Shown here one piece after another: positions 42,756 to 46,337 of a stretch of 64,000 bases of DNA; within the stretch, counting starts at the first letter, position 1; every line of letters starts with the position of its first letter. This DNA comes from a phage. Location: sequence record PV946933.1. One strand, 5' to 3'. The notes under the pieces are model-generated. The model was not told where the DNA came from. It did not search any database and saw only the letters and a program-made list of their open reading frames with translations. Made by a program: the position numbers and the translations under genes.

Positions 42756-43784
42756 ATGTCATCGATACCTTGGATTGATAATGAGTTTGCATACCGTGCA
42801 TTAGCTCATTTACCTAAATTCACACAAGTAAATAATAGTTCAACTTTTAAATTACGGTTTAGATGCCCTGTTTGTGGAGATTCAAAAACCGACCAAAATA
42901 AAGCCCGTGGATGGTATTACGGTGATAATAATGAAGGAAATATTCATTGCTATAACTGTAACTATCATGCACCAATCGGAATATATTTAAAGGAGTTTGA
43001 ACCTGATTTATATCGTGAGTATATCTTTGAAATAAGAAAAGAAAAAGGTAAAAGTCGTCCAGTAGAAAAACCTAAAGAACTTCCTAAACAACCCGAGAAA
43101 AAAATAATTAAATCTCTTCCGTCATGCATTAGATTAGATAAACTGGCGGAAGACCATCCAATTATAAAATACGTAAAAGCTCGTTGTATTCCAAAGGATA
43201 AATGGAAATATCTTTGGTTTACAACCGAATGGCCTAAATTAGTTAATAGCATAGCGCCAGGAACATATAAAAAGGAAATACCTGAGCCTCGTCTTGTTAT
43301 TCCAATTTATAATGCTAATGGAAAAGCTGAGTCTTTTCAAGGACGCGCATTAAAGAAAGATGCTCCCCAAAAATATATCACCATCAAAGCTTATCCTGAG
43401 GCAACAAAAATTTATGGTGTTGAACGAGTTAAAGATGGTGATGTATATGTTCTAGAAGGACCTATAGATTCACTTTTTATTGAAAATGGTATAGCTATTA
43501 CGGGTGGTCAATTAGACCTAGAAATTGTTCCATTTAAAGATAGACGTGTATGGGTTTTAGATAATGAACCTCGTCATCCTGATACTATTAAACGAATGAC
43601 TAAATTAGTTGACGCAGGAGAAAGGGTTATGTTTTGGGATAAATCTCCCTGGAAATCAAAAGATGTTAATGATATGATTAGAAAGGAAGGTGCAACCCCT
43701 GAACAAATTATGGAATATATGAAAAATAATATTGCCCAAGGGTTGATGGCTAAAATGCGGCTATCTAAATATGCTAAGATTTAA
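42756..43784 (+). CDS. 61: DNA primase gp61
   Basis: 342 aa; N-terminal zinc ribbon CPVCGDS...CYNC; TOPRIM-like core. Confidence 0.92.
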   Translation: MSSIPWIDNEFAYRALAHLPKFTQVNNSSTFKLRFRCPVCGDSKTDQNKARGWYYGDNNEGNIHCYNCNYHAPIGIYLKEFEPDLYREYIFEIRKEKGKSRPVEKPKELPKQPEKKIIKSLPSCIRLDKLAEDHPIIKYVKARCIPKDKWKYLWFTTEWPKLVNSIAPGTYKKEIPEPRLVIPIYNANGKAESFQGRALKKDAPQKYITIKAYPEATKIYGVERVKDGDVYVLEGPIDSLFIENGIAITGGQLDLEIVPFKDRRVWVLDNEPRHPDTIKRMTKLVDAGERVMFWDKSPWKSKDVNDMIRKEGATPEQIMEYMKNNIAQGLMAKMRLSKYAKI

Positions 43785-43981
43785 ATTAATCCAACTAAAG
43801 CAAATGCTAAATCTACGAATGTATCGAGAGTAATTACTGGAATACTAACGCCATGAGCAATAGCAATTGGCGATAAAATAAAGTTCCATAGTAAAATTCC
43901 TATCATAGCAGAAATAGTAAAAGCTATACGTTTTTTATTACCTTTTATGGCATTAACAAGTGCCATTAATTTTTGTACCAT
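43781..43981 (-). CDS. small membrane protein (66 aa), only convincing minus-strand gene
   Basis: Two hydrophobic helices; RBS AGGAGG and late-promoter-like ATAAATAT upstream on minus strand; lies in an otherwise non-coding gap. Confidence 0.5.
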   Translation of the reverse strand: MVQKLMALVNAIKGNKKRIAFTISAMIGILLWNFILSPIAIAHGVSIPVITLDTFVDLAFALVGLI

Positions 43982-44002
43982 GCGTCGTCCTCCTTTAAAT
44001 TA

Positions 44003-44012
44003 AATATTTATC
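44003..44012 (-). promoter_or_regulatory. late-promoter-like element for minus-strand membrane ORF
   Basis: ATAAATAT on minus strand (7/8 of TATAAATA) followed by AGGAGG. Confidence 0.35.
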
Positions 44013-44030
44013 GCAAATTTTACAAAATTT

Positions 44031-44060
44031 GTTTACTTTCTCAGCTTGCTGTGGTATTAT
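44031..44060 (+). promoter_or_regulatory. T4-type early promoter
   Basis: GTTTAC-N18-TATTAT; inverted repeat CTCAGC 44040-44045 / GCTGAG 44071-44076 includes RBS. Confidence 0.65.
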
Positions 44061-44085
44061 AAAATAAACTGCTGAGGATAATATA

Positions 44086-44523
44086 ATGATTAATAAAATT
44101 GTACATGAAATGGCTTTAAACGGAGATTCATATAAAATATCTGCCGTAGTTGAAAATTTCATACTTAATAAAGTAAAAGAATATTTCACTGATTGTTCAG
44201 TTAGTTATCAAGAAAAAATGGTTTTAATCGACGATACTGAAAAATCAAATAATTTGTTTTGTTCGAATTTTACAACTAAGAAGCGTACTAGAAGATTTGA
44301 TATTGTCATTTCTCGCAATGGTAAAAAGCATATAATTGAAATCAAACACCAAGTTGGTGGAGGTACAGCCATTGATTCGGTTGGAATATATCTGGAAGAT
44401 AAAGATAAATTAAAAGAATACACAAAAACTGAAAATCCTGTGTCATTGATGATATTAGATTTTTTGCCATGCGGATATTATCCGCGTAATAAGTGGACAA
44501 AAAGAGAATCATTTACTGATTGA
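44086..44523 (+). CDS. hypothetical protein with PD-(D/E)xK-like motif (145 aa)
   Basis: RFDIVI...HIIEIKHQ resembles the D...E-x-K nuclease core; early promoter upstream. Confidence 0.45.
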   Translation: MINKIVHEMALNGDSYKISAVVENFILNKVKEYFTDCSVSYQEKMVLIDDTEKSNNLFCSNFTTKKRTRRFDIVISRNGKKHIIEIKHQVGGGTAIDSVGIYLEDKDKLKEYTKTENPVSLMILDFLPCGYYPRNKWTKRESFTD

Positions 44524-44640
44524 TAATCCAACCATCCAAGCAAGGTTTAATGAATATGCTAAATCACAAAACGTGTTAGTATTACTATCAAATACATATG
44601 ATGAAGAATTATATAATTCGTTTTTTGCTGCAATAAATGA

Positions 44641-45429
<789 letters not shown>

Positions 45430-45489
45430 CTGCTTATATATTCAAATGATATAATTATTTAACTTATTAATGAATTGAAAGGAAAAATA

Positions 45490-46008
45490 ATGGCTTACTT
45501 TAACGAATGTTCACAATTGATCGAAGGCGCTGATAAAGCTCAAAATGAATACTGGGATATTCTCGGTGATGAAAAAGACCCTCTGCAGGTTATGCTTGAT
45601 ATGCAGAAATCTCTGCAAGTTCGTTTAGCTAAAGATAAACCTGAATATAACCGTCATCCTGATGATTTGGCTACCGCAGGTGAAGTTGTTGATTGGCTGC
45701 GTAATCAGAAAGATTATATTGACGATGAATTCCGTGAACTTCTAACTTCTCTTGGCGGTATGAGCAATGGCGAAAAAGATGCATCTGCTGTATGGAAGCC
45801 TTGGAAAGCTCAACATGGTGAACGCCGTGAAACTCTAATTACTGATTTGTCTCCACAAGACCAGTTGGAAATTAAATTCGAAATGATCGATATTCTTCAT
45901 TTCGTTCTGAACATGTTCCAAGGTCTTGGTCTTACGGCTGAAGAAATCTTTAAACTTTATTATCTGAAAAATGCTGAAAACTTCGCTCGTCAAGACCGAG
46001 GTTATTAA
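45490..46008 (+). CDS. 56: dCTPase/dUTPase gp56
   Basis: 172 aa from ATG 45490; MazG-like; recalled T4 gp56. Confidence 0.85.
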   Translation: MAYFNECSQLIEGADKAQNEYWDILGDEKDPLQVMLDMQKSLQVRLAKDKPEYNRHPDDLATAGEVVDWLRNQKDYIDDEFRELLTSLGGMSNGEKDASAVWKPWKAQHGERRETLITDLSPQDQLEIKFEMIDILHFVLNMFQGLGLTAEEIFKLYYLKNAENFARQDRGY

Positions 46009-46053
46009 TAGCTCGTTTATTTAAACGACGACTTAAAAGCCGCGAGAATTTAT

Positions 46054-46061
46054 TATAAATA
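46054..46061 (+). promoter_or_regulatory. late promoter of soc
   Basis: TATAAATA about 30 nt upstream of soc ATG. Confidence 0.65.
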
Positions 46062-46091
46062 ATCATGTAATTTAAATAAAAGGAGAATTAC

Positions 46092-46337
46092 ATGGCTAGT
46101 ACTCGCGGTTATGTTAATATCAAAACGTTTGAGCAGAAATTAGATGGAAATAAGAAAATTGAAGGAAAGGAAATTTCTGTAGCTTTCCCTCTTTATTCTG
46201 ACGTTCACAAAATTTCTGGCGCTCATTACCAGACATTCCCTTCAGAAAAAGCAGCATATACTACTGTATATGAAGAAAATCAACGTGCTGCGTGGATTGC
46301 TGCAAACGAAGATTTGTGGAAAGTAACTGGCGGTTAA
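46092..46337 (+). CDS. soc: small outer capsid protein Soc
   Basis: 81 aa, recalled as near-identical to T4 Soc; late promoter TATAAATA at 46054-46061. Confidence 0.88.
   Translation: MASTRGYVNIKTFEQKLDGNKKIEGKEISVAFPLYSDVHKISGAHYQTFPSEKAAYTTVYEENQRAAWIAANEDLWKVTGG

Follow-up and report, generated by a model that had tools for sequence, protein, structure and literature searches.

Pairs of a DpnII-type restriction endonuclease and a Dam-type methylase are common in bacteria, and virus-borne restriction-modification (R-M) pairs that act on GATC are known in chloroviruses, lytic viruses that carry the Type II endonuclease R.CviAI together with the N6-methyladenine (m6A) methylase M.CviAI, with viral DNA being methylated and other DNA attacked. 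Another small endonuclease gene of the restriction fold, E. coli vsr, overlaps the methyltransferase gene dcm, and its product repairs mismatches that arise by deamination of 5-methylcytosine (5mC), for which m6A has no counterpart. The Dam enzymes of T-even phages T2 and T4 have served as model methyltransferases for decades; dam mutants grow normally, and we know of no essential role for T4 or T2 Dam. Here, we analysed a 145-codon open reading frame (ORF) located upstream of dam in a 64,000-nucleotide stretch of phage DNA (sequence record PV946933.1; "the window" refers to this whole stretch). A preliminary description of the window had pointed to a likeness between the product of this ORF and nucleases of the restriction-endonuclease fold. 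We find that the ORF is a frameshifted allele of a longer gene, and propose, with a probability of about 0.5, that the intact gene and dam make up a phage-borne Type II R-M-like module, which is inactivated in the window genome. In view of the chlorovirus and bacterial pairs, a module of this kind is not categorically new.

The ORF Upstream of dam Is a Disrupted Allele

The region studied belongs to a Tequatrovirus (T4-like phage): window positions 43700–45500 match 507 phage records and are 99.6% identical to Escherichia phage vB_EcoM-G28 (G28). The features that bear on the nuclease-methylase pair are as follows.

44086–44523, plus strand: 145-amino acid (aa) truncated allele of a 186-aa predicted PD-(D/E)xK nuclease gene (phrog_8706)
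44152–44154, 44299–44301, 44338–44340, and 44344–44346, within this ORF: catalytic-motif codons for E23, D72, E85, and K87, respectively
44517–44524, plus strand: tandem duplication of TGAT (TGATTGAT), revealed by alignments to G28 and T2
44525–44650, plus strand: 3' remainder of the nuclease gene in the shifted frame, comprising 41 undamaged codons and a TAA stop that shares its final A with the dam ATG
44650–45429, plus strand: dam, intact, encoding a 259-aa D12-class N6-adenine DNA methyltransferase with a DPPY motif

An ATG-initiated, 145-codon ORF containing the residues RRFD72IVI...HIIE85IK87HQ is present at the position given in the preliminary description, but it is not the native gene. 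The native gene of G28 is 561 nt long (186 aa), and its TAA stop codon shares a base with the dam ATG (TAATG); this full-length form is found in about 155 phage records. Over ca. 660 nt, the sole difference between the window and G28, its closest relative, is a 4-nt tandem duplication, which changes TGAT to TGATTGAT; there are no substitutions. The duplication yields a TGA stop codon at 44521–44523, and the last 41 residues of the protein are lost. The final 41 codons are stop-free in the next frame (44525–44647) and are the same as those for residues 146–186 of the G28 protein. Because this out-of-frame tail carries no further change, the lesion is either recent or artefactual. A 40-nt probe, which matches only if the duplication is present, did not detect the duplication allele in any of 50,697 phage records; the TGAT lesion is therefore either peculiar to the present genome or an error of sequencing. 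Two smaller details of the preliminary description also need correction: the gap between the truncated ORF and the dam ATG at 44650 is 126 nt, not 127 bp, and the spacing of the putative catalytic residues is D72-x12-E85-x-K87 rather than D-x(13)-E-x-K.

In an AlphaFold2 (AF2) model, the frameshift deletes helix 147–159, strand 163–167, and helix 172–185, which have predicted local distance difference test (pLDDT) scores of 82–95 and lie within a single domain. Since the lost alpha-beta-alpha unit belongs to that single domain, the model suggests that the 145-aa product is probably unstable or inactive. The phage from which the window derives is most likely nuclease-negative and Dam-positive. 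We conclude that the 145-aa ORF is a pseudogene-like allele, and that its annotation as disrupted is warranted.

The Intact Gene Encodes a Predicted Restriction-Fold Nuclease

The intact protein matches PHROG 8706 (function unknown) end to end. It falls below all Pfam and NCBIfam thresholds, the NCBIfam matches being noise only; all database records of the gene read "hypothetical", and no description of it was found in the searchable literature. When 1.84 billion representative proteins were searched exhaustively with HMMER, 11 matches were returned, and two word-indexed searches of 5.8 billion proteins returned 10–12, the second (profile) search yielding nothing new. Among the genomes of 185,579 bacterial and archaeal species, no relative turned up. 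The family, ca. 11 clusters among the representative proteins, is thus very small and confined to T4-like phages, and appears to be a new phage-restricted nuclease family of the restriction-enzyme type. Two metagenome-derived entries, P0008 and P0010, were excluded as chimeric or partial database entries; in these, an unrelated N-terminal part (epimerase-like or asparagine-synthetase-like) is joined to a fragment of the phage nuclease, and they are probably assembly artefacts.

The AF2 model, calculated from seven sequences and of fair confidence (pLDDT 78.7; predicted template modelling score 0.78), has the element order alpha-alpha-beta-beta-beta-alpha-alpha-beta-alpha-beta-alpha. It contains the alpha-beta-beta-beta-alpha-beta core that defines the PD-(D/E)xK fold, and Foldseek comparisons with the PDB and BFVD concur, in agreement with the likeness seen initially. 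A profile search of PDB sequences with the family produced no match at expectation values (E) up to 10. The second-best viral structural neighbour, BFVD K4I5X0, is an uncharacterised 205-aa protein of the T4-like Salmonella phage STML-198 (Foldseek E 2.8e-5; 15% identity).

In the model, D72 is located on strand beta2 (68–77), E85 and K87 on strand beta3 (80–88), and E23 on the first long helix (15–33). Residues E23, D72, E85, K87, H88, and Q89, the loop G93-T-A-I-D-S98, and D125 do not vary among the nine sequences compared, whose identity falls as low as 29%. The catalytic D, E, and K, whose loss in homologues would have spoken against the preliminary description, are kept in every homologue, and the hallmarks of the superfamily, a conserved acidic residue on beta2 and a conserved (D/E)xK on beta3, are both present. 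A bare D..ExK motif on its own is weak evidence. Based on the fold and the conservation pattern, we consider it very probable that the protein is a restriction-fold nuclease, and propose that the intact product may be a compact, single-domain, metal-dependent endonuclease with a predicted active site composed of E23, D72, E85, and K87.

The Nuclease Gene Is Linked to dam and Is under Purifying Selection

In each of the ten lineages with recoverable context, the nuclease gene is located directly 5' of a gene for a D12-class adenine methylase. These lineages are the G28-type and T2 Tequatroviruses; three distant metagenome T-even lineages (P0002/P0003, P0005, and P0006); P0009, whose methylase partner was recognised by its sequence; Klebsiella Jiaodavirus KPV15 and a matching metagenome contig; and P0011 and P0013, which, with 29–32% identity, are the most divergent members of the family. 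The juxtaposition, which the preliminary description allowed might be due to chance, is therefore not accidental, and the arrangement typical of R-M systems, an endonuclease gene adjoining a methyltransferase gene, is found in all ten cases. In nine of them, the genes either touch or overlap (gap 0 to −35 nt); T2 is the exception, owing to the loss of 1 nt close to the 3' end of its nuclease gene.

The pair is also conserved in a genus where its location differs. In Klebsiella phage KPV15, it lies between the rIIB side and a topoisomerase gene, and not between primase and gene 56. Since the KPV15 pair sits elsewhere in the genome, the two genes move as a unit, and the cassette occupies at least two different genomic neighbourhoods. 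The gene following the pair of P0013 and its Dam (contig L015, 1664–3844) codes for a protein of 726 aa that matches HATPase_c weakly and may be a subunit of a topoisomerase, which would echo the KPV15-type location.

The two proteins diverge in parallel: Dam identities to the window's pair of 98, 70, 72, 62, 55, and 53% correspond to nuclease identities of 97, 63, 56, 42, 32, and 32%, respectively. The ratio of non-synonymous to synonymous substitution rates (dN/dS) for the nuclease gene among intact Tequatrovirus alleles is 0.04–0.08, the same as for dam, which indicates strong purifying selection; the G28 and T2 nuclease genes differ by 18 synonymous and 3 non-synonymous changes. The possibility that a diverged nuclease is hidden upstream of the solitary dam of other T4-like genera was considered and rejected, as the ORFs that precede dam in kaaroe (Krischvirus) and GAP161 (Pseudotevenvirus) bear no relation to it. 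Because these genera have a related dam with unrelated upstream ORFs, the nuclease accompanies only one branch of phage Dam. A functional tie between the nuclease gene and Dam is highly likely, and we propose, from the arrangement of the genes, that translation of the nuclease may be coupled to that of dam.

The Nuclease Gene Is Recurrently Lost While dam Is Kept

According to summary tables covering about 500 Tequatrovirus records, a full-length nuclease gene and dam are present in about 155, and dam with a deletion stump in 34, including all T4 records, RB55, and RB59, which share one common deletion. About 310 records, including T6, RB14, and RB51, have neither gene, and their match to the query is limited to its primase/ORF66 end. 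No nuclease-only genome occurs in these counts. A nuclease 3' end joined to dam was found in 179 records, versus 182 records with a Dam of at least 90% identity. On these counts the nuclease never occurs without the methylase, while solitary methylases do occur. This is the pattern expected of an R-M pair, in which a methylase can stand alone, an endonuclease always has its methylase, and the endonuclease is lost time and again.

In RB14, the gene 56 promoter follows directly after ORF66, both cassette genes being gone as a ca. 1.4-kb block. The T4-type deletion joins TATCGCAAA to the last ca. 29 codons of the nuclease gene, which immediately precede dam; there is CAAA microhomology at the junction, and the putative early-type promoter of the cassette is also lost. 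The dam-only genomes are deletion derivatives. The supposedly non-coding DNA 5' of T4 dam (2627–2738 of the T4 sequence L016, between dam and ORF66) is this stump. While the "orphan" dam of T4 is preceded by a remnant, classical phage T2 still has the nuclease gene with a slightly changed C-terminus: its product (T2 sequence L003, 2001–2546) is 181 aa long and has an altered C-terminal tail.

Independent lesions in the nuclease gene, with dam kept, include the 4-nt insertion in the window, a 1-nt deletion at nt 128 in G4500, a 371-nt deletion in KarlGJung, insertions or deletions in a 3' T-run in T2 and ES21, and the T4 deletion. The T-run, six T residues long (ORF nt 527–532), varies in length, with 5 in T2 and T4, 7 in ES21, and 8 in KarlGJung; by sequence comparison it appears to be a frameshift hotspot that changes the last residues only. 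In one T4-type phage, Pinarejo, dam itself was matched only to residue 229.

Relation to DpnII and Other Restriction Endonucleases

Family members were scanned with 24,736 Pfam models. DpnII (PF04556), named for an enzyme that is specific for GATC and blocked by m6A, was the top family in four of nine members, with BanI next best. The best DpnII score, that of P0009, was 22.5 bits (E 8.3e-5) against a gathering cut-off of 23 bits, while the protein of the window scored 16.5–17.2 bits. The PADLOC model REase_II (Type II restriction endonuclease) gave an E of 1.5e-4.

To compare the two families, DpnII-family alignments were built from database proteins and nine plasmid-borne genes (28–55% identity). 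The DpnII reference sequence was verified (Pfam 335.7 bits over the full length; 99% identity to P0018), later work being done on database sequences only. Alignment with hhalign extended over 84–91 columns with P values of 6e-4 to 1e-3, at a probability of just 22–29%. It paired E23 with the invariant Glu of MENIV, RRFDIVI with KRFDFVI, and IEIKHQxGGGT with IEVNFYSGGGS. In reciprocal hidden Markov model (HMM) comparisons, seven of nine phage family members and 11 of 16 DpnII-family members scored above the 99th percentile of composition-matched shuffles (best P 7e-8), while an EcoRI control scored −0.6 bits. The C-terminal 140 residues of a moderate-quality DpnII model have the same secondary-structure order as the phage protein. 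The aligned features are collinear with those of the C-terminal catalytic domain in the family of DpnII, MboI, and LlaDCHI: a helix Glu, RFDxVI, hIEh, a G-G-(S/T) loop, a strand ending in D, and a helix-strand-helix unit. The partner is also the same, a Dam-type methylase of the D12 class that acts on GATC; in bacteria and archaea, DpnII genes adjoin genes for Dam-family methylases, and in Haloarcula the order is endonuclease-then-methylase, as in the phage. On the other hand, DpnII has EVN, with Asn, where the phage protein has the canonical Lys of ExK, and the carriers of DpnII are bacteria and plasmids, whereas here they are virulent phages with hydroxymethylcytosine (hmC) DNA; the GATC specificity of the phage enzyme would be presumed from the likeness. 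We conclude that the phage protein is probably a remote homologue of the catalytic domain of DpnII, but that, with scores below threshold, this is not established.

The alpha-class Type II enzymes MunI and EcoRI, which produce 4-nt 5' overhangs, also resemble the phage protein in some respects. The MunI chain is ca. 200 aa long, the D-x(12-14)-E-x-K spacing is similar, and the short motif E-x-K-H-Q occurs both in the phage protein and in the EcoRI sequence, which was checked. No sequence relationship to these enzymes is detectable, the profile search of all PDB sequences having been empty. Homology to EcoRI, suggested by E-x-K-H-Q and by the likeness of GTAIDS to GNAIER, was nevertheless dropped, as the hhalign probability was 0.2% and the family HMM gave the negative score stated above.

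A Putative R-M-Like Module and Its Alternatives

If the nuclease and Dam indeed form an R-M-like module, it might operate as follows. The nuclease gene would be transcribed from an early-type promoter, with translation coupled to that of dam, and the nuclease would cut GATC sites devoid of m6A. Dam would methylate GATC sites of the phage's own DNA and so protect it. As the enterobacterial hosts are themselves Dam+, the targets would be other DNA in the cell rather than that of the host: any GATC-unmethylated DNA in the infected cell, and above all the DNA of co-infecting dam-less T-even phages, provided that hmC or glucosyl-hmC is tolerated by the enzyme. Phages that keep dam after losing the nuclease, such as T4, would stay immune. 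The sequence leans towards a DpnII-like enzyme whose action is blocked by methylation, and not towards a methyl-dependent or a repair nuclease.

Among natural phages, dam is carried along as the second member of a cassette of nuclease and methylase, and the long-studied Dam of T2 and T4 would thereby gain an ancestral partner and a testable purpose. If confirmed, the module would be a case of R-M used by a virulent, hypermodified phage instead of its host. A further, tentative possibility, which we regard as doubtful at present, is that T-even phages use the GATC R-M pair against one another. Nuclease+/Dam+ phages would cleave unmethylated GATC sites of co-infecting Dam-less relatives (T6, RB14, and others, ca. 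60% of the Tequatroviruses sequenced), and phages with Dam only, T4 among them, would be immune "cheaters" rid of the nuclease. Dam would then be the antidote half of an inter-phage weapon, which would give it both an origin and a function, and a phage-borne cause would be added for the extreme depletion of GATC.

Several observations weigh against the R-M-like module. Its main weakness is the intolerance of Type II enzymes to hmC and glucosyl-hmC. Glucosyl-hmC blocks most Type II enzymes (PMC7653180), and GATC in T-even DNA carries this modification; self-protection by Dam may therefore be unneeded, and cleavage of other T-even DNA is uncertain. The classical role, destruction of host DNA, is inapplicable, because host DNA is already Dam-methylated. 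Chlorovirus enzymes, by description, degrade unmethylated host DNA, and the present system differs from theirs in its Dam+ hosts and in the additional hypermodification of the phage DNA. The relation to DpnII is incomplete. No family member reaches the Pfam gathering threshold of 23 bits and five of the nine have no DpnII match, the three members that diverge most have no similarity to it, the hhalign probability is low, and the N-terminal 120–140 residues of DpnII are missing. The full-length DpnII architecture (ca. 280 aa) is thus not that of the 186-aa phage protein, which aligns to profile positions ca. 143–234 and beyond. Because of the missed threshold, the lacking N-terminal domain, and the missing signal in the three most divergent members, the protein should not be filed as a DpnII-family member. 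Avoidance of GATC in enterophages is an old observation, and in the window GATC is the most under-represented of the 256 tetramers (64 observed versus 211 expected; observed/expected (O/E) 0.30). The depletion, however, does not separate phages with the cassette from those without it, as the O/E is also 0.30 in cassette-less RB14 (L029, 1–50000), and 0.29 in the KPV15-like contig (L008). Finally, the presence/absence counts given above are those of summary tables.

Among other explanations, a free-standing homing endonuclease is the one that survives best, though we consider it unlikely. A selfish nuclease of this kind would cleave the DNA of relatives without the cassette, either within dam or close to where primase and gene 56 adjoin, and be copied in by repair, dam being its cargo or landing site. 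The patchy distribution among close relatives (ca. 30% with the pair, 7% with dam only, and 60% with neither) would be accounted for, and the neighbourhood is a known hotspot of homing genes, with T4 segF adjoining gene 56. The seg and mob genes are likewise optional, patchy among close relatives, and inserted between conserved genes in the same neighbourhood. Their products, however, are of other folds (GIY-YIG for seg, HNH for mob), whereas the phage nuclease is permanently linked to, and has co-diverged with, one partner. Pairing with dam down to ca. 30% nuclease identity, in at least two unrelated contexts, is unlike recently spreading homing genes; the stop/start overlap with dam is conserved, and there is no additional DNA-binding module. 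Furthermore, the dam-only state of T4 is a deletion derivative with a stump and not a naive empty site, and the 5' ends of dam are near-identical in phages with and without the nuclease.

A methylation-dependent, DpnI-like nuclease has slightly poorer prospects. Such an enzyme would cut G(m6A)TC in cytosine DNA, with Dam topping up host or foreign methylation and hmC or glucosyl-hmC shielding the phage. It corresponds to the strong form of the methylation-aware nuclease for host DNA put forward in the preliminary description. The strict linkage to Dam fits this scheme, as does the early-type promoter match; Dam+ hosts would offer a ready target, and, by the annotation note of NC_000866, cytosine DNA and hmC DNA are both substrates of T4 Dam. 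Yet the protein has no DpnI-family match, and its single 186-aa domain lacks a winged-helix or methyl-reading domain; its sole family-level similarity is to DpnII, which m6A blocks. Nor would the absence of nuclease-only genomes be predicted, as host Dam would suffice for such a nuclease. T-even phages already own nucleases for use against host DNA, the cytosine-specific EndoII and EndoIV.

An improbable alternative is a methylase-linked repair or recombination nickase acting at hemimethylated GATC sites in the manner of MutH, or akin to dcm-vsr. The overlapping E. coli genes provide a precedent, and the phage gene is dispensable, many independent knock-outs being viable. In the phage, however, the gene order is opposite to that of dcm-vsr, the canonical D...ExK site is unlike that of Vsr, and m6A makes no deamination mismatch. 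Searches of Pfam and NCBIfam gave no Vsr or MutH matches, and neither by sequence nor by closest structure does the protein belong with MutH or Vsr. Lastly, a catalytically inert DNA-binding or regulatory partner that affects the specificity or expression of Dam, or a functionless decaying gene, might explain the frequent lesions and the ability of Dam to work alone in T4, but is very improbable given that the catalytic residues are all invariant and that dN/dS is ca. 0.05 among intact alleles.

The Locus and Its Neighbouring Genes

The local gene order in the window is primase (gene 61), a 66-aa ORF on the opposite strand, the 145-codon ORF, dam, the dCTPase gene 56, and soc. Dam was identified by matches to Pfam MethyltransfD12 (E 1e-50) and NCBIfam TIGR00571 dam (E 1.2e-69), and is 98% identical to T4 and T2 Dam. 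Other features of the locus are listed below.

42756–43784: primase gene 61
43781–43981, minus strand: 66-aa hydrophobic flanking ORF (phrog_2024), in phages with and without the cassette
43995–45430, plus strand: optional cassette with promoter, nuclease, and dam (limits approximate), from comparison with the RB14 locus and coverage over 507 records
44031–44060, plus strand: predicted promoter-like site of the T4-early type, with GTTTAC (44031–44036), a 17-nt spacer, and TG-n-TATTAT (44055–44060), from a consensus scan
44074–44078, plus strand: GAGGA Shine-Dalgarno sequence 7 nt 5' of the ATG at 44086, read from the sequence

The preliminary description had assigned the ORF its own early promoter. 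A T4-early-type match is indeed present at 44031–44060, but early-type matches in this AT-rich region are not more frequent than in shuffled sequences (10 found versus 12.8 expected), so that the match by itself does not establish a promoter.

The 66-aa ORF phrog_2024 lies outside the cassette, because it is also found in cassette-less phages. It is conserved, is oriented against its neighbours, and has a 4-nt overlap with the primase stop. In T4, it is intact (L016, 2739–2939) and unannotated in the RefSeq record, while it is annotated in RB14, G28, and T2. Downstream of dam, soc follows directly after gene 56, and the window phage is thus without the homing endonuclease gene segF, which T4 has between 56 and soc. 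Gene 56 (in the stretch 45475–46337) was listed from a TTG at 45475; the ATG at 45490 (MAYFNEC...) is the annotated start in relatives.

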